This document shows positions 4,894-35,203 of a stretch of 64,000 bases of DNA, one piece after another (position 1 is the first letter of the stretch; the number at the start of each line of letters is the position of its first letter). The stretch lies in the IMG/VR virus record IMGVR_UViG_3300035042_000139; one strand, written 5' to 3'. Made by a program: the position numbers and the translations under genes. This DNA is from a virus (Duplodnaviria; Heunggongvirae; Uroviricota; Caudoviricetes). Under the pieces are notes generated by a model that saw only the letters and a list, made by a program, of their open reading frames with translations, ran no database searches and was not told the origin of the DNA.

Positions 4894-5102
4894 TATTATA
4901 GGTTAAAAAGAGAGGGGGATTTACCATAAAGTTATATAAATGGCAGGAGGAAGTTTTTGCTGATAAGTCATCAGTTATAGAAGTTAAAGGAGCAAGAAGA
5001 ACAGGCAAAACAGAGCTTGGAAATCATTTATCTTTAAGAGATGAGGTTGTTGTAAGATACTTTAAATACAGTAGACAAAAGGATGAATGTTTTAAATCAA
5101 CT

Positions 5103-5534
5103 ATGCACAATATACTCTCACTTAAGAATTTTATAAGCTATACTGCTAAAGATAGAAGAATAATTCGATACTGGATTTTAAATGATAATGATGAAGTTGA
5201 AAGCAGAAAAATATTCTTTTTATCTGGAACATCAGATTATGCTATCAGAAATATATATGAAAGAACAAATGGTTATACTAAAAAAATCGATACTTTAATT
5301 TTTGAAGACATGGAAGTTTCTGATAAAAAAGTAGAAAAAATAAGAGAGCATTTTATTAAAGACTTTAATTTAAAGCAGATATTCATTTTTAACTCAACTC
5401 CTTTAAAAAGGAAACAATATGTGATAGACTTATTACAGGTCAACAAAAGTGCAGCAGAAGACATGAAAAAACTAATGTCTGAAGAAAGGTATAAAGAAGA
5501 TATAAAACTTATTGGTTACGAGGAGGTAGATTAA
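5103..5534 (+). CDS. Hypothetical protein.
   Basis: 143-aa ORF. No recognisable motif. Confidence 0.4.
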   Translation: MHNILSLKNFISYTAKDRRIIRYWILNDNDEVESRKIFFLSGTSDYAIRNIYERTNGYTKKIDTLIFEDMEVSDKKVEKIREHFIKDFNLKQIFIFNSTPLKRKQYVIDLLQVNKSAAEDMKKLMSEERYKEDIKLIGYEEVD

Positions 5535-5708
5535 TTGCCTACATATAATTACAGGTGTAAAGATTGTGGCCACGAGTTTTCTGAGATTCAGAAAATAAGT
5601 GATGAGCCTTTTAAAGAATGTCCAAAATGTGAAGGTGAGCTTGAAAAGATTTTTAAAAAACCACCCGGCATTCAATTTAAAGGTCCAGGATTTTATAGTA
5701 ATACTTAA
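5535..5708 (+). CDS. FmdB-family zinc-ribbon regulatory protein (TTG start). Not in the ORF track.
   Basis: RBS AGGAGG at 5521-5526 then TTG 5535. MPTYNYRCKDCGHEF...CPKCEG: CxxC-x17-CxxC with the typical FmdB N-terminus 'Y.Y.C..CGH.FE'. Confidence 0.6.
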   Translation: MPTYNYRCKDCGHEFSEIQKISDEPFKECPKCEGELEKIFKKPPGIQFKGPGFYSNT

Positions 5709-5933: not shown

Positions 5934-7034
5934 ATGACAGGAAAAGACAAAGGTATGATGGGGCTTATAGCATTTTTGGTGATTGTGTTTATTGCAGGTG
6001 TAGGATTTTTTATGGTAACGGATAATATCGAGCCAGGGTTTGTTGGCTATGTTTATGACCGTACCATTGACCCTGATAATCCAGATGAAAATAGTGTACC
6101 TGTATTAGAGGGTACATCAGTAATCAACCAGCCAAGGTATGGACTTGTTTGGCTTAATCCTTTTACTCAAGAAATGTATATCTCACCAACAACTATTATC
6201 AGCAGAAACTGGACTAAAAATGAGCAGGAAGGCTCAAAACAGGATGACTCAATTGAGGCAGGAACAATTGAGGGCAAGAATGTAATTACTGATATTTATA
6301 TGTCAGTTCAGCCAGAAAATGTAGCTAAGATTATTAAAAATTGGGGCGTCAAAAAAGACTTCGAGACTATTGTAGATGATGAGCTTTACGGAGTTATGAA
6401 GGGCGAGGTTAAAAAGGTAACAAGAAAAACTTCAGTCTATAACTTCCAGGCCAAGGTTAGTGAAATGCAGACAGAAATCTTTGAGAACTTAAAAGAAACA
6501 ATGTCTGATAAGTATGGCATTAGATTAATCAGGTTTGAATTTGGAAACATATTAGTGCCAGAGGAAATTCAGGCTGAGATTAACCGAAAAACATCAGCTA
6601 TTAATGAGGTAGAACTTGCTGAGCTGGATGCTAAAAGACAGGCTGAGGTTAACGCTAAAGAGGTAGCAAGACAGGAAGCTGAGTCAAAGCAGGAGCTTAT
6701 TCAAAGACAGGCAGCTGCTGATGCTGATGCTTATGAGAAGGAAAGAAAAGCAGATGCAGAAGCTTACTCTATTGAAAGAAAGGCAGAGGCTATTAAGATG
6801 GCAGCTAACAATAAATATGAAGCAGCTATTTTAGAAAAGAAAGCAGAGTTAGAAAAACAGCAGGCTTATACAGATGTGTATTTTGCTAACAGAGAGCTTG
6901 ACCTGCAGACTAAAGCTGTTACAAGCATCAATGATAAGATGAAGATTATTGTTACTCCAGAAGACGGCAGTGGTATAGGTTCAATGCCCGGTATCATGGG
7001 TATCTTAAATGAAATCAGCGGGGCGATGGAATAA
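5934..7034 (+). CDS. SPFH / Band-7 (flotillin/HflK-like) membrane-scaffold protein.
   Basis: N-terminal TM helix (GLIAFLVIVFIAGVGFFMV), SPFH-like core, and a long Ala/Glu/Lys-rich coiled coil ('EVELAELDAKRQAEVNAKEVARQEAESKQELIQRQAAADADAYEKERKADAEAY...') typical of flotillin and HflK/C. Confidence 0.65.
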   Translation: MTGKDKGMMGLIAFLVIVFIAGVGFFMVTDNIEPGFVGYVYDRTIDPDNPDENSVPVLEGTSVINQPRYGLVWLNPFTQEMYISPTTIISRNWTKNEQEGSKQDDSIEAGTIEGKNVITDIYMSVQPENVAKIIKNWGVKKDFETIVDDELYGVMKGEVKKVTRKTSVYNFQAKVSEMQTEIFENLKETMSDKYGIRLIRFEFGNILVPEEIQAEINRKTSAINEVELAELDAKRQAEVNAKEVARQEAESKQELIQRQAAADADAYEKERKADAEAYSIERKAEAIKMAANNKYEAAILEKKAELEKQQAYTDVYFANRELDLQTKAVTSINDKMKIIVTPEDGSGIGSMPGIMGILNEISGAME

Positions 7035-7201
7035 TGATGTTTGATGAGGATTTTATAGGACTAATGATTGGAGGATTTGGATTTTTCCTGATTGCAGTAT
7101 CATTTTTACTGGCAGACATTCCTTTGTCGGGCAAGTTGTTACTTGAGGGGTTTTTATTCTTGGTAGCTTGGCTTATTTGGGAGATGAAAAATTCATTGTA
7201 A
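7034..7201 (+). CDS. Small two-helix membrane protein translationally coupled to the SPFH gene (possible NfeD-like partner).
   Basis: ATG overlaps the SPFH stop (TAATG). MMFDEDFIGLMIGGFGFFLIAVSFLLADIPLSGKLLLEGFLFLVAWLIWEMKNSL. Confidence 0.4.
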   Translation: MMFDEDFIGLMIGGFGFFLIAVSFLLADIPLSGKLLLEGFLFLVAWLIWEMKNSL

Positions 7202-7232
7202 AAAAAGAGAGGCGGGTAATTCCGCCTCTTAA
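7201..7232. terminator. Bidirectional rho-independent terminator.
   Basis: A6 (7201-7206), then AGAGGCGG (7208-7215), loop GTAATT, CCGCCTCT (7222-7229). Read on the - strand it gives a U-run directly after the stop of the 7229..7525 gene. Confidence 0.75.
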
Positions 7233-7525
7233 TCTAAATCTTCTTCGACATATTTAGAGTGTGACTGGCCTAGTTTCTGGTATTTAGAGTAATATTTTTT
7301 AAGGATATAGCGGTATCCTTCTTCGGTTAACTCATTAATGTTACGCTTAATACCAATCTTTCTAAGCCTTAATGATAACATTTTAATCTCATAATACAGG
7401 TCGGGGTCAATTGTTCCACTAAATTCTATTCTTTCTATTTTTTTCTTTTTCGACATATACCTCACCTCTGTATTAATTGTATCTCGTACAATTTTGATTG
7501 TCAATAATACAATAAAAGAATGCAC
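7229..7525 (-). CDS. Hypothetical protein. Lone - strand gene within the + strand module.
   Basis: 98-aa basic ORF flanked by a terminator. Unknown function. Confidence 0.4.
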   Translation of the reverse strand: MHSFIVLLTIKIVRDTINTEVRYMSKKKKIERIEFSGTIDPDLYYEIKMLSLRLRKIGIKRNINELTEEGYRYILKKYYSKYQKLGQSHSKYVEEDLD

Positions 7526-7642
7526 CTTCTTATATAGGTTTACTTAAACAACAAAAGTATAGGCAGTAAATTTTTTAATCTTACATTATAGAAAATAAAA
7601 AAGCAAATTTAATTTTAAAAAGGATTGGAAGTGGTTTATTTA

Positions 7643-8338
7643 ATGACATGTGTAGTTGGATTTAAAGCAGAAAAAGAAAACAAAATATATATTGGCGCTG
7701 ACACTGTTGGCTCTACAAATTACACAAAAGAAAACAGGAAAGACGGCAAGGTATTTGCTTCAGGTGATTTCACAATAGGTTTTGCGGGTTCTTATAGAAT
7801 GGGACAGGTATTGCAGTATAAATTAGATGTTCCGGCACAGAAAGACTCTCAGACAGACCACGGCTATATGGCCACGACATTTATCGATGCAGTTAGGAGA
7901 CTTTTTGATAAAAATGGTATTATGGGTGTCGACCAGGACAACAAGGAATTTGGCGGTTTGTTTTTAGTAGCATATAAAAATGAGCTCTATAGAATCGACT
8001 ATGACTTTCAGGTTGGTATCGGAAGTGAAGACTTTACCGCTATAGGTTCCGGTGGAGAGGTAGCTTTGGGGGCTATGTACGCTTTAAATAGTTTTGATGA
8101 AGTTGGGCCTACCGAAAAGGTAACGATGTCTATTCTGGCAGCTATGGACCTCACACCCTTTGTTGGTGGAGATATAGAGATTGTAACTCATACCTATGTT
8201 GAAGAAAAAGAGATTGATAAGGTATACAAGAAACTTTCTGATATGACAGATGAGGACCTAATGGAGATTCAGGAATATCTTGATATGACTATTTGCGATA
8301 ATGACATGATGGCTCTCGGAGTTGATGAGTGTGCGTAG
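7643..8338 (+). CDS. HslV/20S-proteasome-beta-like Ntn-hydrolase peptidase (T1 family).
   Basis: With start at ATG 7643 the N-terminus is M-TCVVGFKAEKENKIYIGADTVGS, i.e. nucleophile Thr1 after Met removal, matching HslV/proteasome beta 'TT.VG.K..DGVVLAAD'. A later 'FTAIGSGGEVALGAMYAL' matches the GSGG motif. Confidence 0.55.
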   Translation: MTCVVGFKAEKENKIYIGADTVGSTNYTKENRKDGKVFASGDFTIGFAGSYRMGQVLQYKLDVPAQKDSQTDHGYMATTFIDAVRRLFDKNGIMGVDQDNKEFGGLFLVAYKNELYRIDYDFQVGIGSEDFTAIGSGGEVALGAMYALNSFDEVGPTEKVTMSILAAMDLTPFVGGDIEIVTHTYVEEKEIDKVYKKLSDMTDEDLMEIQEYLDMTICDNDMMALGVDECA

Positions 8339-9974
8339 CAAGAAGACAAAATATATATTTGTTACTGGTGGAGTGGTTTCGGGCTTAGGTAAAGGCCTTA
8401 CTGCTGCTTCACTTGGTTTTTTGCTTAAAGCTAGAGGGTTAAATATTAAGGTTCAGAAATTTGACCCCTATATCAATGTTGACCCCGGGACAATGAACCC
8501 TATAGAACATGGAGAGGTTTTTGTAACATCAGATGGGGCTGAAACTGATTTAGACCTCGGTCATTATGAAAGGTTTATCAACATTGAGCTTTCTGGTAAA
8601 AACTCAGTTTCTACAGGTCAAATATATCAGACTGTTTTAGATAATGAAAGAGAAGGAAAGTATTTAGGAAAAACAATACAGGTTATACCGCACATAACAG
8701 ACGAGATTAAAAGAAGAATGACATTACCAGAAGATAAAAATACAGATATTATTATTATTGAAGTTGGAGGAACTGTAGGAGATATTGAAAGCTATCCATT
8801 TATAGAAGCTGTAAGGCAGTTAAGACATGACTTGGGCTTTGATAATACATTCCATATTCACTGCACTTTAATACCTTATATGCATAAGGTCGGTGAATAC
8901 AAGTCAAAGCCAACACAGCAGAGTTTAAAAGAACTTAGGAGCTTGGGTGTTCAGCCAGATGCCGTTGTTGGCAGAATAAAAGGTCAGATGCCGGAAGATA
9001 TAAAAGATAAAATTTCACTCTTTGGAAATATAGATAAAAGATTAATATTTGAATCTGTAGATGTTGAGCACATATACGATATTCCTCTGAAATATGAAGA
9101 GCAGTTTATGGCTGAAAGGGTTATGAAAGGTATAGGTTTTGATTTGTCTGTACCAGATATGACTCCCGGAGTTAAGTTTAAGGATATGGATATGTGGGAA
9201 ACTATGGTCAAAAATTTAAAAGAAGAAAAAGAAAGTGTAAATATCGCTGTTGTTGGTAAATACACAGAGCTTGAAGATGCTTATCTTAGTATCAAAGAAG
9301 CTTTATATCATGCAGGTGTCGCAAACAATCTTGATGTAGAAATTGCATTTATAGATGCTGAATACTTAGAAGATTTAAGCTGTGATGAAGCAGTAAAAAT
9401 AACATTAAAAGAATATGATGGAATACTAGTTCCTGGTGGATTCGGCAAAAGAGGTATTGAGGGTAAGATAAAAGCAGCTAGGTATGCTAGAAAAAACAAT
9501 GTCCCTTACTTTGGTATCTGCCTAGGAATGCAGGTTGCAGCTATTGAGTATGCCAGAAACAAGCTTGGCCTAGAAGATGCCAACAGCTTAGAGTTTGACA
9601 GTGAAACTAAAAACCCTGTAATCACTCTCATGAATGAGCAGAAAGAAATTAATAATAAAGGTGGAACAATGAGGCTTGGCTCTTATGACTGCACTCTTGA
9701 TACTAATAGCAAGGCTTACGGAGCTTATAAAGAAGAGCATATTAGTGAAAGGCACAGACATCGCTTTGAATTTAATAATTATTTTACTGAGTTTTTTGAA
9801 AAAGGAATGATAGTTACTGGAATAAACCCGGACTTAAATCTTGCTGAAATAATTGAAATAGAGGACCACCCGTGGTTTGTTGGTGTGCAGTTTCACCCTG
9901 AGTTTAAGTCAAGGCCTTTAAGACCACATCCGTTATTTGTTGACTTTATAAAAAATGCTTCTACGAGGAGATGA
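8322..9974 (+). CDS. pyrG: CTP synthase (glutamine-hydrolysing).
   Basis: 'KYIFVTGGVVSGLGKG' N-terminal P-loop, 'DPYINVDPGTMNP', and a GATase domain with catalytic Cys in 'YFGICLGMQ' and 'HRHRFEFN'. Start overlaps the end of the HslV-like gene by about 17 nt. Confidence 0.95.
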   Translation: MMSVRSKKTKYIFVTGGVVSGLGKGLTAASLGFLLKARGLNIKVQKFDPYINVDPGTMNPIEHGEVFVTSDGAETDLDLGHYERFINIELSGKNSVSTGQIYQTVLDNEREGKYLGKTIQVIPHITDEIKRRMTLPEDKNTDIIIIEVGGTVGDIESYPFIEAVRQLRHDLGFDNTFHIHCTLIPYMHKVGEYKSKPTQQSLKELRSLGVQPDAVVGRIKGQMPEDIKDKISLFGNIDKRLIFESVDVEHIYDIPLKYEEQFMAERVMKGIGFDLSVPDMTPGVKFKDMDMWETMVKNLKEEKESVNIAVVGKYTELEDAYLSIKEALYHAGVANNLDVEIAFIDAEYLEDLSCDEAVKITLKEYDGILVPGGFGKRGIEGKIKAARYARKNNVPYFGICLGMQVAAIEYARNKLGLEDANSLEFDSETKNPVITLMNEQKEINNKGGTMRLGSYDCTLDTNSKAYGAYKEEHISERHRHRFEFNNYFTEFFEKGMIVTGINPDLNLAEIIEIEDHPWFVGVQFHPEFKSRPLRPHPLFVDFIKNASTRR

Positions 9975-10423
9975 ACACAATCAGTAATGAATTCACAGGA
10001 AAAAAAGTAAAAGCAGCAGAGATGAGAATGTTTATAGATAATATTGAATTCCCGGCAGAAGTTATGACCATGACATCTCAGGTAGCAAAAGACCAGATTG
10101 AGTGGTATGACAGTATATCTAAGGATAGGTATTCTGTCGAATGTGAAATAAATACAGACGAAACAAGCCTTGATGACTTGTATGAGGCAATAAATTCACT
10201 GCCTGAAATGTCTTATCATTATGTAATTGTTTTTAATAAAGAGGGTTTTGAAGAATTTAAAGAAACAATGCCTGTTGAGTTGAAAGAAAACGCAGATAAG
10301 ATTAGTTCTATATTTGGGATGAAAGTTAGGGTAATTGCAGGACTTGAAGAAAAGGTAGCAATTTACAAAATTCCTCTTGGCTCTGAAGGAATTGAAGGGG
10401 TGTTAGACTTATGGAATTTTTAA
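9971..10423 (+). CDS. Hypothetical protein.
   Basis: 150-aa ORF overlapping the pyrG stop. Confidence 0.4.
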   Translation: MNTISNEFTGKKVKAAEMRMFIDNIEFPAEVMTMTSQVAKDQIEWYDSISKDRYSVECEINTDETSLDDLYEAINSLPEMSYHYVIVFNKEGFEEFKETMPVELKENADKISSIFGMKVRVIAGLEEKVAIYKIPLGSEGIEGVLDLWNF

Positions 10424-10659
10424 AAGAAAAGCCACCAAGAATTGATTATATCAAACACTTTTTTGCTGGAGGGTTAATAACACTAATTTTAAGTTTGATT
10501 AACCCATTCTTTGGATTAGTAACAGGAAGTACAGTTGGTATATTAAAGGAATATGTCTGGGACAAGTGGCTTGATAAAGGTTGCTTTGAATGGACGGATA
10601 TGGCTTACACTATAACAGGTTCAACACTTGTATATATAGTAATTATGCTTTGCATATAA
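10411..10659 (+). CDS. Small membrane protein.
   Basis: Two predicted TM helices (GGLITLILSLINPFFGLV, GSTLVYIVIMLCI). Confidence 0.35.
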   Translation: MEFLKEKPPRIDYIKHFFAGGLITLILSLINPFFGLVTGSTVGILKEYVWDKWLDKGCFEWTDMAYTITGSTLVYIVIMLCI

Positions 10660-16578: not shown

Positions 16579-16998
16579 ATGAGAAGGGTAAATGCAGAAA
16601 CTATAAAAAAGAGGATGATGACAACAATGAGTAAGGAGCTTCTATTTTCTGTAACTAAAAACGATTTAGAAATTGAGACATTCCGCTCTGGTGGCCCGGG
16701 CGGACAAAACCAAAACTCACGAGAAACTGGTGTCAGAATTAGACATAAAGAGTCAGGGGCTGTGGCCGAGTCAAGAAACCACAGGACTCAGGCTAAGAAT
16801 AAAAAGGCTGCACTTGAAAGACTTGTAAAGACAGATGAATTTAAAAAATGGCATAAGCTTAAAACAAGTTATGCTCTAAAGGGTGTTGATGACTATAAAA
16901 AACAAATAGAAAAAGAAGTTGATGCATGGATGAGTGATAGGAATTTAAAAATAGAAAGTTTTAATGAAGATACTAAGCAATGGGAGGAATTAAATTAA
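16579..16998 (+). CDS. RF-1 domain (GGQ) peptidyl-tRNA hydrolase, ArfB/ICT1-like ribosome-rescue factor family.
   Basis: 'FRSGGPGGQNQNSRETGVRIRHKESG' is the canonical GGQ motif and context. Size of about 125-139 aa equals ArfB. Likely start at ATG 16618 or 16630 (MMTTMSKE...). A Cys-rich micro-ORF lies at 16500..16634 in another frame. Confidence 0.65.
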   Translation: MRRVNAETIKKRMMTTMSKELLFSVTKNDLEIETFRSGGPGGQNQNSRETGVRIRHKESGAVAESRNHRTQAKNKKAALERLVKTDEFKKWHKLKTSYALKGVDDYKKQIEKEVDAWMSDRNLKIESFNEDTKQWEELN

Positions 16999-17297
16999 TG
17001 ATAGAGATTACAAATATAGATGAGTTTAATTATTTTATCAACCAGGATGAATATGTTCTGATTGATTTTTATGCTAAATGGTGTGGAAAGTGTAAGCAAC
17101 TTAAAGGAAGGTTAATGGCCCAGTATGCTGATAAGTTTGATATTTACACAGTTGATGTTGACTCTTTTGAGGCTTTAGCTGAAGAGTATAACGTAAAAGG
17201 ACTTCCGAAACTTATATTGTTTAAAAATGGAGAGATTGTTGAAGAACAGGATAAATCAGCTATGGTATTTCTAAAAAAGATAAAAACATTACTATAA
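16980..17297 (+). CDS. trx: Thioredoxin.
   Basis: 'IDFYAKWCGKCKQL' CxxC active site, 'GLPKLILFKNGE' cis-Pro region, 105 aa. Confidence 0.8.
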   Translation: MGGIKLMIEITNIDEFNYFINQDEYVLIDFYAKWCGKCKQLKGRLMAQYADKFDIYTVDVDSFEALAEEYNVKGLPKLILFKNGEIVEEQDKSAMVFLKKIKTLL

Positions 17298-17335
17298 AAA
17301 AAGAAGCCGTCCATTTAAGGGCGGCTTTTATTGTT
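17296..17335. terminator. Bidirectional rho-independent terminator at the convergence point of the + and - strand modules.
   Basis: A-run 17296-17302, AAGCCGTCC (17304-17312), loop, GGGCGGCTT (17319-17327), then TTTTA. Confidence 0.7.
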
Positions 17336-17340
17336 TCTAT

Positions 17341-17925
17341 TTAGTTATCTATTACTAAATCAGCTGTAGAATAAATGGCTACACCTAATGCTATGTACTC
17401 AATTTTTTCTATAAAGCTCATTGAATACATTTTTTCCTGTTCATTTATTATATCGTCTTTAAGCATTAGCTGCTCTTTCTGCAGTCCTATCACCTGATTG
17501 GCGTTAGCTATTGCACTGTCAAAAGATTCTTTCTGGTTTTTAATAGAAACTTTAAGCATGTCATTTTCATCTTCTAAGGATAATATGTATTTATCTTGGA
17601 GTTCATTCTCCTTTTTTAATCCTTTTATTAAAGATTCCTGTTTGGCTACAATGCTTTTTAGTTTCGATACTTCATTTTCAAGAGATTTAATCTTATTTGC
17701 AACATCAATAGCTTCCTGTTCTGTTAAATCATATTTTTTACTTTCTATTATCTTTTTTAGAGTTTCTATCTCTGCCTTTTGAGCTTTTATAGTGTTGCTT
17801 AGTTCTACTATTGTTGCAGACTCAGCATTAGCCTTCTGACTTCCCATCATCATTAATACTGTCAATAATATAATTATAAGCAGCGTCGCCATCAGAGTCG
17901 CCAAATTCTCCGGGTGCATTCTCAT
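17341..17925 (-). CDS. Membrane-anchored coiled-coil protein.
   Basis: N-terminal hydrophobic segment 'LATLMATLLIIILLTVLMMM' then about 150 aa of heptad-rich coiled coil. The true start is probably an internal Met (about 17892 or 17856). Confidence 0.45.
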   Translation of the reverse strand: MRMHPENLATLMATLLIIILLTVLMMMGSQKANAESATIVELSNTIKAQKAEIETLKKIIESKKYDLTEQEAIDVANKIKSLENEVSKLKSIVAKQESLIKGLKKENELQDKYILSLEDENDMLKVSIKNQKESFDSAIANANQVIGLQKEQLMLKDDIINEQEKMYSMSFIEKIEYIALGVAIYSTADLVIDN

Positions 17926-18268
17926 CGTCTTCGAGCTCCTTTTTTAGGGTTTCAATTTCCTTTTCTGTCTCCCTATTTTTTTCTTTCTGTTGTTTGATTT
18001 CATTATCAATTAAATCTCTTTTCTCTTTCATATCTTTAGTTTTCTGAATCGAATCCTCAAACTCTTTGTCATACTTCTTAGCGTCTTTTTTTAATTGTTC
18101 CTGCCTGATTTTTACCTCTTCTCTAATTCTCTTTTCTTTTTCTTTTTTGCTTTTGATTTTTCTTTCTATCTCTTCCTTTTCTTTATTTTTGCTGAAGAAA
18201 ACAAATGCTAAAGCAGCACCTATCCCTGATAGAATATAAACCAAAGCTTCCTTTATTTTATTAAACAT
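17828..18268 (-). CDS. Membrane-anchored Lys/Glu-rich coiled-coil protein.
   Basis: TM 'ALVYILSGIGAALAFVFF' then a KE-rich helix and an acidic C-terminus. Confidence 0.4.
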   Translation of the reverse strand: MFNKIKEALVYILSGIGAALAFVFFSKNKEKEEIERKIKSKKEKEKRIREEVKIRQEQLKKDAKKYDKEFEDSIQKTKDMKEKRDLIDNEIKQQKEKNRETEKEIETLKKELEDDENAPGEFGDSDGDAAYNYIIDSINDDGKSEG

Positions 18269-19017: not shown

Positions 19018-20127
19018 TTATAACTTATCACCTCCATTTAAGATAATGTAGGACCTTGGCTCAATTTTAAACCCCTGAACCATTTCTGCGTTGCCTCCGT
19101 TGTTGATTATTAGTTCGTAACATCCTCTTTTAGCGTGGTAAATGTTACATGTTGATTTGATAATCTCAAGGCCCTCTTTTTTTGTTTTCTTTTTAACTCC
19201 GATAAGAGTATCTATTTGGTCTTTCAGTTCATATCTAAAGTAATCATCCCAGAAAACAACGACTGGATTGTCCTGGAAGAATATATATGCATATGCAAGC
19301 TCTTTTTTCTCTGAGATTGCATCCTTATTTGAACTTCTCTCTCTTCTTTCAATATCGTGATTAGCAAGGAAGTTAACCCTTTTATTTTTGTTTATTTCTT
19401 CAAGTTTTCTGATATCAAAATCAGGGTTCATACACATATCTCTTAATTTGTAAAATAAGGGAAAATTTAATAAATTTAAGTCTGGATTATAAGAGTGAAC
19501 CTCATTTAGTTTTGAATCTGCACCTTCCCAGTATTCGCCCATCATAAATGTGTCAAGCTTAAAATATTGTGTGAATACTTTTGTAAAATCCCAGCGCATA
19601 TCTTTTATGTTATCTAGTCGAAAACTGTCGAAACCTATCTCATCTTTGAGCCATTTTGCCCAGTTTATTAAACCATCTGCCATATATTTATCATCAGAGT
19701 AATAACAGATTGTTTCTCCAAAGGAGTTGCGGCTGTCGCAGCCACCACATTCGTGACAGAAGTGCTTGTAATTTTTTTTAAATAATTCATCTTCAAATTT
19801 TGTGTATGTTTTTTTATCAAAATAAGGATTGTACTCAAGCTCTCCTCCAAGCATATGGCCTAATACTAAATCAGCCATGACATTAACATCTTCTTTATGT
19901 AGTTTATTTATTAGTTTTTTGAGTGTTTCTTTAGTACCAAACCTAGAATCTAAGTTGTAATGTTCTTTAATATCATAGCCCATTGAGTTAGCACCATTCA
20001 TGCCCTTTGAAACAGGTGGAAGCCAGACAGTATCAAAGCCCTTGTTTGCTATCTCTTCAGCCAGATACTCTAAATGCTCCCACCAATTCTCAAGACAATT
20101 CCAATAAAACCCCTGTAAGATTACCAA
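19018..20127 (-). CDS. Glycoside hydrolase family 13 alpha-amylase catalytic domain protein.
   Basis: 'VILQGFYWN' N-terminus. GH13 regions I 'DLVLGH', II 'GFDSFRLDNIKD', III 'MMGEYWEG' and IV 'NFLANHDIERR'. Confidence 0.7.
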   Translation of the reverse strand: MVILQGFYWNCLENWWEHLEYLAEEIANKGFDTVWLPPVSKGMNGANSMGYDIKEHYNLDSRFGTKETLKKLINKLHKEDVNVMADLVLGHMLGGELEYNPYFDKKTYTKFEDELFKKNYKHFCHECGGCDSRNSFGETICYYSDDKYMADGLINWAKWLKDEIGFDSFRLDNIKDMRWDFTKVFTQYFKLDTFMMGEYWEGADSKLNEVHSYNPDLNLLNFPLFYKLRDMCMNPDFDIRKLEEINKNKRVNFLANHDIERRERSSNKDAISEKKELAYAYIFFQDNPVVVFWDDYFRYELKDQIDTLIGVKKKTKKEGLEIIKSTCNIYHAKRGCYELIINNGGNAEMVQGFKIEPRSYIILNGGDKL

Positions 20128-33933: not shown

Positions 33934-34074
33934 ATGGAACGAACACAAGTCTCTTTACCTAAATATCTTAGAGATAAACTAGATGAAGAAGGAAACAAAA
34001 AAGGCATAGGCATTTCAGAAATGGTTCGCTATATTTTATTTCAATACTATGAAGAAAGTGATAACAATGAGTAA
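33934..34074 (+). CDS. Small ribbon-helix-helix-like protein (46 aa) inside the IS element.
   Basis: RBS GAGGTGA 33922-33928. MERTQVSLPKYLRDKLDEEGNKKGIGISEMVRYILFQYYEE... has a beta-strand plus two helices of CopG/RHH type. Overlaps the tnpB start. Confidence 0.35.
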   Translation: MERTQVSLPKYLRDKLDEEGNKKGIGISEMVRYILFQYYEESDNNE

Positions 34075-35203
34075 ATCACATATCACACTACACCACATTA
34101 AATTATTTGAACCTACAAATATTAAACGTAATGAACTAAAAAAGCTTTCTCGTAACTGGAACAAAGCTATTCGTTCAGCCCTCAAAATAATTAAACACTG
34201 GGGGCTTACTGCTTACACTAAATCACATAAGCATGTATATAGAGTTGTTAAGAATAATTACAACCTCCCTTCACAGGTAGCTATTGAAGCTAATCGTAAA
34301 GCTATGGAATCTTATAAGTCTTGTCATAAAAAGTTTAGAGATAACGTTAAGTTTAACTATCAAGTACCTGTTGATTTAGTTAAGAATAAAAGTTTTAAAC
34401 TTATAAGAAAAGATAACGGTACTAATATTATAAAGATAAGCATTGAGCCTTATAACAATATCTACGTACCTATCTCTTTAAGCAACTACCACTTAAATTA
34501 TATTAATAATGATAGGTACGAGATTAAAACAGCTGAGCTATATAAACAAGATGGTGAATGGTATCTTAATTTTATACTAAGATACGAAGTGAAAGGAAAA
34601 GAAACAGACACTCATCTTGGTGTTGACCTTGGTATTATTAATCTAGCTACGTTTAGTGTAGTAGACAGCAGTGAAAATATTTTGCATACTGAACACCTAT
34701 CAGGTAAAGAGTTAAGGTTTAAACGTATGAGATATAAAAGTAAACGTAAGCGTAAAGCTTTTAAGTCTGATAGTAAGAATACTTCACTGATTAAAGAAAA
34801 CAGAATTACTAAAGAAACTAACTGGCTTATAACTAATAGAATTATTGAGATAGCTAAAGAATATAATTCTACTATTGTATTTGAAAACCTTAAGAATATT
34901 AGAAAGAATATTACTAACGATAACAATCTAAACAACTATGAGAAAAATAGTTGGGCTTACTATCAATTAAAACAGTTTGTAAAACATAAAGCTAATCTTA
35001 ATAACTTACCTGTTGAAGAAGTTAATCCTTACAAAACATCTAAGATATGCCACGTATGTGGACAAGAAGGCATAAGAGAAACACAAAACTTGTTTGAATG
35101 TACTAATGGTCACACTTTTAATGCTGATACTAATGCCAGTATAAATATAGCTAAACTTGCTATGGGTATTGAGATAGAAAATCCTTTTGTCGATGTAGCA
35201 TAG
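34049..35203 (+). CDS. tnpB: TnpB (IS605 OrfB / IS1341-type RNA-guided RuvC-like nuclease).
   Basis: RuvC-I 'HLGVDLGIINLA', RuvC-II 'TIVFENLKNI', zinc finger 'CHVCGQ...CTNGH', RuvC-III 'NADTNASINIAK'. Likely start at ATG 34067 (MSKSHITL). Confidence 0.8.
   Translation: MKKVITMSKSHITLHHIKLFEPTNIKRNELKKLSRNWNKAIRSALKIIKHWGLTAYTKSHKHVYRVVKNNYNLPSQVAIEANRKAMESYKSCHKKFRDNVKFNYQVPVDLVKNKSFKLIRKDNGTNIIKISIEPYNNIYVPISLSNYHLNYINNDRYEIKTAELYKQDGEWYLNFILRYEVKGKETDTHLGVDLGIINLATFSVVDSSENILHTEHLSGKELRFKRMRYKSKRKRKAFKSDSKNTSLIKENRITKETNWLITNRIIEIAKEYNSTIVFENLKNIRKNITNDNNLNNYEKNSWAYYQLKQFVKHKANLNNLPVEEVNPYKTSKICHVCGQEGIRETQNLFECTNGHTFNADTNASINIAKLAMGIEIENPFVDVA

Follow-up and report, generated by a model that had tools for sequence, protein, structure and literature searches.

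Does a proteasome-like peptidase encoded by a phage work with an AAA+ unfoldase, and is it functionally tied to the CTP synthase whose gene overlaps its own? These questions are raised by a 64,000-nucleotide stretch of the tailed-phage record IMGVR_UViG_3300035042_000139 from IMG/VR (the whole stretch is referred to as the window). Its plus strand between positions 7643 and 9974 consists of two overlapping open reading frames (ORFs), the first encoding the peptidase and the second the CTP synthase (pyrG). The reading that we favor, and consider probable, is that a BPH-like, unfoldase-independent Thr1 peptidase and a CTP-supplying enzyme each act on their own and are merely packed into one tight operon.

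Start, fold, and active site of the peptidase

The peptidase gene (7643..8338, plus strand) encodes a protein of 231 residues, a group I proteasome homolog of the BPH/AAH-like N-terminal nucleophile (Ntn) threonine hydrolases that belongs to PHROG 1040. An independent gene call by the Joint Genome Institute (JGI), made on a contig of identical sequence, gave the same 231-residue product. The ORF opens with ATG-ACA-TGT, encoding Met-Thr-Cys, and is preceded by a Shine-Dalgarno-like GGAAGTGG (7627..7634, plus strand) located 8 nucleotides upstream of ATG 7643. In the ORF listing, the frame could be extended to TTG 7625. Initiation at TTG 7625 or GTG 7631, which would create a short propeptide, was considered and rejected: relatives have a stop there, and the Shine-Dalgarno spacing suits ATG 7643. 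Because a stop codon stands immediately 5' of the peptidase start codon at four related loci (L002, L003, L004, and L005), the product starts with Met-Thr and has no propeptide. Residues are numbered here with Met as position 1, so that the nucleophile is Thr2, equivalent to Thr1 of the mature form.

The product matched the PHROG 1040 profile ("peptidase HslV family") over residues 1-206 with an E value of 2e-24. Its score against the Pfam Proteasome family (PF00227), 15.8 bits, lay below the gathering cut-off of 22.4, the match covering positions 5-187 of the 189-position profile. The equivalog cut-offs for HslV were missed by a wide margin (22.9 bits versus 157.75 for TIGR03692 and 22.7 bits versus 137 for NF003964). 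The best sequence match in the PDB was BPH (5ovu, E 2.4e-4), in which TCVV aligned to TCVV at the extreme N terminus. An AlphaFold2 model of the monomer, built with 44 homologs, had a predicted local distance difference test score (pLDDT) of 92 and a predicted template modeling score (pTM) of 0.81 and contained helices H1-H4 (H1, residues 51-60; H2, residues 72-90). When the model was compared with the PDB by Foldseek, BPH ranked first (template modeling score 0.80), followed by HslV (0.63-0.78) and then by 20S beta subunits. There were 862 PDB matches at E ≤ 1e-3, and all 50 of those listed were BPH, HslV, or 20S proteasome chains.

In the preliminary description of this DNA, the product had been taken for a Thr1-type Ntn protein resembling the proteasome and HslV. 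Model and alignment bore this out, revealing an alpha-beta-beta-alpha Ntn fold with equivalents of Thr1, Asp17, Lys33, Gly47, and Ser129; the loss of the N-terminal Thr that had been named beforehand as counterevidence was not seen. The catalytic equivalents are Thr2 (codon 7646-7648), Asp20 (7700-7702), Lys36 (7748-7750), Gly46 together with Gly49, and Gly135-Ser136-Gly137 (8045-8053), all on the plus strand. Among 268 family members, the N-terminal Thr was conserved in 256 and replaced by Ser in 7 more, Asp was found in 266, Lys in 265, Gly46 in 260, and Gly135 in 267; the Gly-x-Gly motif was kept in at least 262. The N terminus read MTC in 224 of 267 homologs. Comparison with three relatives gave ratios of nonsynonymous to synonymous substitution rates (dN/dS) of 0.05-0.11, and the peptidase is thus under purifying selection. 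Judged from these sequence features, the protein is apparently a functional Thr1-type proteasome homolog of an uncharacterized family.

In the preliminary description a non-catalytic scaffold had been considered, and the same data bear on this idea, under which the protein would resemble a proteasome alpha subunit. Activity is known for no member of the family, which leaves room for such a role. However, the catalytic residues are near-invariant (Thr or Ser at position 2 in 263 of the 268 members, besides the Asp, Lys, and Gly-x-Gly counts given above), purifying selection is strong, and there is no N-terminal extension that could block Thr1. The scaffold idea is disfavored because of this near-invariance, and we regard it as extremely improbable.

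The description of the protein as HslV-like held in part. It shares with HslV (ClpQ/CodW) the fold, the Thr1 nucleophile, the equivalents of Asp17 and Lys33, and the GSGG motif. Unlike HslV, it scores far below the model cut-offs, has an acidic rather than a basic pore region, and has no hslU accompanying it in the window. The peptidase is therefore not HslV proper; its nearest relative in both sequence and structure is BPH. Like BPH (5OVS, 5OVT, and 5OVU), it has a Met-Thr-Cys start without a propeptide, an Asp/Lys/Gly/Ser active site, a pore loop that contains acidic residues and is about as long, and no cognate AAA+ unfoldase. The pore-loop region, GVDQDNKEFGG, is moderately acidic and of BPH length, in contrast to the basic cluster of HslV. 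In BPH itself, Thr1 is exposed by removal of Met and binds epoxomicin, and no unfoldase partner is present (PMC5777263). That protein forms a heptameric double ring (7+7) with an acidic cavity, its residues corresponding to the HslU interface are not conserved, and it was inert on all substrates tested (PMC5777263). Removal of the initiator Met from the phage protein is predicted. The two proteins share only ~22% identity, and the phage protein differs from BPH in its family motifs, in being phage-borne, and in bearing a 46-residue C-terminal extension.

The family motifs S-[FY]-R-M-G-Q and D-F-Q-V-G are invariant, and BPH and HslV show nothing comparable where they align with them; the invariant residues Arg52, Gln55, Asp121, and Gln123 are absent from both. 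These residues are among the features that would fit a specific Ntn transpeptidase or ligase of the connectase type, or an amidohydrolase acting on a small-molecule or nucleotide-related substrate. The proteasome family does include a sequence-specific ligase, connectase, and the inertness of BPH on standard protease substrates points the same way, as do recurrent neighbors from replication and nucleotide metabolism (thymidine kinase, pyrG, dCMP deaminase, DNA ligase, PTH2, and Thg1). Yet the model lacks the helical insertion between S3 and S4 that covers the connectase active site according to Fuchs et al., the closest folds are ring-forming proteases, and the neighborhoods vary without a single conserved metabolic partner. 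We consider this alternative quite unlikely.

Distribution of the family and the search for an unfoldase

A stand-alone HslV-like peptidase had been called unusual for a phage, an assessment that did not survive the database searches. The family has a PHROG of its own, and relatives were found by tblastn in 204 of 50,697 phage records, including phages of Salmonella, Escherichia, Vibrio, Aeromonas, Geobacillus, and Moorella. At least 400 relatives were confirmed among IMG/VR contigs by two peptide patterns, and one pattern retrieved 442 from bacterial species genomes, among them Myxococcota, Bacillota, Rhizobium/Mesorhizobium, and Frankia. An exhaustive phmmer search yielded 3,067 clusters at 50% identity with E ≤ 1e-10. 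Many viral structural relatives were present in BFVD, and phage proteins of 131-146 residues were weak matches. Group I proteasome homologs termed AAH, CPH, and PPH, which radiate from BPH, have previously been described in phages; they have no propeptide and no co-occurring AAA+ proteins, and no function has been assigned to them (Fuchs, Alva and Lupas 2021, PMC8665760). Our literature search on the function of phage HslV-like or proteasome-like proteins and of phage CTP synthase found only this bioinformatic survey and genome reports.

The peptidase shares with AAH, CPH, and PPH a compact subunit of ~180 residues, the missing propeptide, the missing AAA+ partner, and the occurrence in phages. 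A distribution over phages and the genomes of Alphaproteobacteria, Actinobacteria, and Firmicutes fits AAH best. Also consistent with AAH are a core of ~185 residues (~180 expected), the presence of helices H1-H4, and relatives in Rhizobium, Mesorhizobium, Frankia, Bacillota, and phages. Identity as PPH was rejected, since a core of ~185 residues with both H1 and H2 is at variance with the ~140 residues of PPH, which lacks helix H2. In three Rhizobium genomes (L175, L178, and L181, ~6001-6117), the proteasome-homolog ORF is cut short by a stop behind residue 38; the three sequences are identical, and the tblastn matches run on to residue 182 despite the stop. These interrupted ORFs could be a pseudogene, a case of recoding, or the result of an intervening element.

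Whereas group I members have been described without C-terminal elements, the clade of the window bears one. This clade-specific extension comprises residues 186-231 (8198..8335, plus strand). In the model, residues 190-199 and 203-220 form two helices, and the acidic tail behind them is disordered. Most family members, whose median length is 184 residues (215 or more in 10 of 267), lack the extension, which marks the sub-clade of the window (P0001-P0006 and P0121). With dN/dS values of 0.07-0.08 against L012 and L004, the extension is also under purifying selection. The C-terminal extensions of proteasome homologs face outward and could be interaction sites (PMC8665760), and the acidic two-helix element may serve in docking or regulation. 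The phage-associated family is known, and a sub-clade with a conserved C-terminal extension is added to it here.

The statement that no HslU partner is present in the window proved correct: translation in six frames of the 64-kb window gave a single Walker A motif (~4989), which is part of a gene remnant that has no start codon. An AAA+ partner, HslU included, is therefore absent from the window. The remnant deserves a brief description of its own. The window region 4902..5708 (plus strand) is a broken version of a gene that in L002 encodes a single protein of 245 residues with a P-loop and a zinc ribbon. The broken copy has no canonical start before its Walker A motif (GARRTGKT) and contains an in-frame stop at 5532-5534, which leaves a separate zinc-ribbon ORF of 57 residues (5535..5708, TTG start). 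The region represents a split gene or else a remnant.

The search was extended to 92 peptidase loci, whose ORFs were all clustered. Apart from shadow ORFs antisense to the peptidase gene, no cluster occurred in more than 19 of the 92, and no conserved AAA+ neighbor was found. The largest real neighbor clusters comprised an unannotated family of ~519 residues and matches to DNA ligase, DnaB-type helicase, PTH2, and UvrD, but no AAA+ unfoldase. Moorella phage MTATph1 is the nearest isolate that has the family, and no gene of the HslU/ClpX type is listed in its complete genome annotation; the "ATPase" near its peptidase is a member of the AAA_5 family. Two candidate partners were dismissed. In L006 and MTATph1, the AAA gene close to the peptidase is a generic AAA and an AAA_5 member, respectively, and these genes are not conserved as a recurrent partner. 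An SPFH/Band-7 gene upstream of the peptidase, considered as a protease-associated partner, has no counterpart at that place in L002 or L003.

These results have to be weighed against the possibility that the peptidase is a hijacking core that docks onto an unfoldase of the host (HslU/CodX or another AAA+ protein) and so forms a hybrid ATP-dependent protease directed against host or defense proteins. An HslV-like fold and active site are what such a core would need, and the failure to find a phage-encoded partner in the window and at the 92 loci is what it would predict. The outward-facing C-terminal extensions could provide the contact, and an AAA-family gene does lie 2-3 kb from the peptidase at some loci (L006 and MTATph1). 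Set against this are the scores far under the HslV cut-offs, the closer kinship with BPH, where the HslU-interface residues are not conserved, and the acidic, BPH-length pore loop so unlike the basic cluster of HslV; the nearby AAA genes are unconserved across loci and not of the HslU/ClpX type. On balance, hijacking of a host unfoldase appears unlikely. A PADLOC scan of the peptidase, PyrG, and neighboring proteins returned no match to a defense system.

The CTP synthase and its linkage to the peptidase gene

The second gene, pyrG (8325..9974, plus strand), encodes a glutamine-hydrolyzing CTP synthase of 549 residues from its ATG, with alternative starts at TTG 8322 and GTG 8331. As had been noted before, it is intact and overlaps the peptidase gene. 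The product passed the equivalog cut-offs of NF003792 (PRK05380; 799.1 bits versus 308) and TIGR00337 (759.7 bits versus 462.75). Both Pfam domains, CTP_synth_N (synthase, ~8349-9131) and GATase (~9273-9953), are complete, and the motifs GGVVSGLGKG (P-loop-like), GICLGMQ, HRHRFEFN, and FHPEF are intact. The nucleophile Cys399 (9519-9521, plus strand) as well as His524 and Glu526 (9894-9902, plus strand) are invariant across four phage PyrGs. The two domains, the catalytic Cys-His-Glu, and the synthase motifs are those of cellular PyrG (TIGR00337/PRK05380). As far as its sequence tells, the protein is an ordinary, complete glutamine-dependent CTP synthase predicted to convert UTP to CTP. Unlike cellular PyrG it is encoded by a phage, and none of the cellular PyrGs found was more than 61% identical to it.

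The view that CTP synthase is uncommon in phages was upheld. Matches to PyrG were obtained in 16 records of the phage collection, of which 11 were unannotated, one was a Salmonella enterica whole-genome contig, and one was a 595-kb uncultured phage. In IMG/VR, two near-universal PyrG motifs, which undercount somewhat, retrieved 32 loci; 10 were contigs of giant-virus metagenome-assembled genomes, and several others lay at contig edges. Phage-encoded pyrG is genuinely rare. The PyrG of the window falls in a small phage clade with 60-81% identity, and its nearest cellular relatives are those of Halothermothrix and other Halanaerobiales (59-61% identity). Because of these nearest relatives and a G+C content of ~33% in the window, an old capture of pyrG from a Halanaerobiales-like lineage and a host of that kind are suggested.

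The end of the peptidase gene, including its stop codon, and the start of pyrG share 14 nucleotides (8325..8338, plus strand, TTGATGAGTGTGCGTAG), an overlap conserved in close relatives (L012, L004, L005, and L002). The two genes had been described as translationally coupled. The overlap is real, but a functional link found no support. Eight gene junctions in the plus-strand block around the pair overlap or abut, so that such a junction is the norm between neighbors there, and the adjacency dissolves outside the clade. In L003, whose peptidase is 53% identical, pyrG lies 3 kb downstream, with seven genes in between that include thymidine kinase, HNH, and small ORFs. Of 91 peptidase loci, 5 carried pyrG, all five belonging to the clade of this phage. 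In none of the more distant peptidase loci was pyrG found within 10 kb, and none of the other 31 IMG/VR pyrG loci carried the peptidase; only a relative of the window itself had both genes.

A mosaic structure was evident when the window was compared with L012, a 97%-identical relative. Synonymous divergence rose from 0.11 in the core of the peptidase gene to 0.93 in the extension (from about codon 185, ~8198), and the PyrG proteins were only about 80% identical. A recombination breakpoint is therefore placed inside the peptidase gene near codon 185, and the segment on the pyrG side has accordingly been exchanged independently of the peptidase core. This pattern in the sequence indicates that the C-terminal extension and pyrG were exchanged together, in mosaic fashion.

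A more persistent neighbor of pyrG is found on its other side. An ORF of 150 residues (9971..10423, plus strand) matched neither Pfam nor PHROG; it overlaps the stop of pyrG by the four nucleotides ATGA. Its homolog in L003 (15195..15656; 24% identity, pairwise E 6e-9) also abuts pyrG, and the ORF has thus remained linked to pyrG over more divergence than the peptidase has. Three close homologs were found in 5.8 billion proteins, and the AlphaFold2 model (pLDDT 43) was unusable.

Could the two enzymes nevertheless form a functional pair, the peptidase processing or regulating the phage PyrG or degrading that of the host, with the overlap enforcing stoichiometric co-expression? An overlap conserved in four relatives, the presence of both genes in one module down to 53% peptidase identity, and a pairing unique to this clade would accord with it. 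The seven intervening genes in L003, the distant loci without pyrG, the 31 viral pyrG loci without the peptidase, the commonness of overlaps in this block, the breakpoint near codon 185, and the greater persistence of the 150-residue ORF all oppose it, and we hold such a pairing to be very unlikely. In our view, the two genes are co-transcribed as parts of a single module for replication and nucleotide metabolism and do not form a dedicated pair. Their adjacency appears to be an incidental result of operon packing.

Upstream of the unit lies an intergenic control region (7457..7642) that contains palindromes. It is bordered by a divergent gene (7229..7456, minus strand) for a ribbon-helix-helix (RHH)-like protein of 75 residues, a possible regulator of this region. 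The gene has a near-consensus, sigma-70-like promoter (7504-7476) and a terminator (7229-7208), both on the minus strand. L002 matches the window at 72-78% identity in coding DNA but at ~95% over positions 7441-7545, which cover part of the intergenic region and the 5' end of the RHH gene. Within this stretch, a perfect palindrome, AATTGTAtctcgTACAATT (7475-7493), runs into the -10 hexamer of the minus-strand promoter. The stretch 7441..7545 is probably an operator for the RHH-like protein. The divergent gene and the conserved palindromic region together suggest that expression of the peptidase-pyrG unit is regulated.

Proposed roles, genomic setting, and significance

The favored reading, in which peptidase and PyrG each act on their own, can be put as a sequence of steps. 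The start Met would be cleaved off, exposing Thr1, which with Asp20, Lys36, Gly46, and Ser136 would make up a classical proteasomal active site. The subunits would assemble into a double ring resembling that of BPH and HslV. The threonine peptidase would act without a dedicated phage AAA+ unfoldase, and hence presumably without ATP, on unfolded proteins or on specific proteins of host or phage. PyrG would raise the supply of CTP, and hence of dCTP, in phage replication. The overlap would reflect co-transcription in a tightly packed operon 3' of the conserved RHH-associated control region.

Several points weigh against this reading. The name "peptidase" derives from the layout of the active site, because the clade has no known biochemical activity and BPH was inert on the substrates tested. 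The motifs S-[FY]-R-M-G-Q and D-F-Q-V-G could, to go by their sequence, mean a different substrate chemistry. The structure modeled was that of a monomer, and assembly into rings is presumed. The clade is probably the AAH group (reference WP_035979212), an assignment made from length, helix content, and taxa. As ~64-84 kb of a genome of 150-200 kb were inspected, a phage unfoldase encoded farther off is possible. Finally, some functional relation between peptidase and PyrG is possible because both genes share the module across 53-97% identity.

A bolder proposal goes beyond the favored reading. According to it, the phage BPH-like clade comprises unfoldase-independent, substrate-specific threonine proteases or transpeptidases that act early in infection against host targets, for instance regulators of defense or nucleotide pools. 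In this phage the enzyme would be wired to a captured CTP synthase, the host's pyrimidine control would be dismantled and replaced by the phage CTP synthase, and the acidic extension would be a targeting module. We regard this as a long shot.

The source of the window is a tailed phage of roughly 150-200 kb. Its structural proteins match those of two distant relatives, Bacillus phage 0305phi8-36 and Moorella phage MTATph1. The window is 91-98% identical at the nucleotide level to the 203.6-kb contig IMGVR_UViG_3300033747_000022. Identical peptidase and pyrG genes were found on a 147-kb JGI contig, in which DNA polymerase III alpha lies upstream. A DNA-level search of the phage collection with positions 7000-10500 returned weak pyrG-like matches to unannotated records only, and a close relative among isolates was not found. 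The host is probably a low-G+C member of the Halanaerobiales or a related group of Bacillota, that is, of the salt-loving anaerobic Firmicutes.

By PHROG matches, the plus strand of the window carries RecJ and DnaD-like genes, and the minus strand carries virion and tail genes. The module runs through polymerase III alpha, RecJ, and a DnaD-like gene to the peptidase-pyrG unit and on to a metallophosphatase, an SNase-type nuclease, and further genes. Both GC skew and AT skew flip sign at ~17,000-18,000, where the replication and metabolism genes of the plus strand give way to the structural genes of the minus strand. The plus-strand block closes with a thioredoxin gene (~16980..17297) that follows a gene (16579..16998) for a protein of 139 residues with an RF-1 (peptide-chain release factor/ArfB-like) domain. 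Just upstream of the RHH/peptidase unit, 5934..7201 (plus strand) encodes the SPFH/Band-7 protein (366 residues) and then a predicted membrane protein of 55 residues. L004, a close relative, also has this pair, as does the identical contig L204; L002 and L003 lack it. A gene bordering the structural module (19018..20127, minus strand) encodes a protein of 369 residues matching an alpha-amylase catalytic domain (E 2e-16), which could be a virion-associated glycosidase. Amid the virion and tail genes of the minus strand lies a transposase gene (34049..35203, plus strand; 384 residues; PHROG 506, E 1e-34), probably an insertion element that the phage carries. The structural region of MTATph1 likewise holds a transposase.

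Current concepts are not changed by the peptidase-pyrG case. It makes three small additions, namely a sub-clade with an extension, a clear gene structure without a propeptide, and a rare full-length CTP synthase resident in a phage. The latter, apparently derived from a Halanaerobiales-like host, is a useful example of the manipulation of pyrimidine pools. The peptidase family, for its part, is very widespread, with thousands of clusters and hundreds of isolated phages, including those of Salmonella, Escherichia, and Vibrio, yet no phage-encoded member has an assigned function. Any tractable member of the family could open the problem of what proteasome homologs do in phages.

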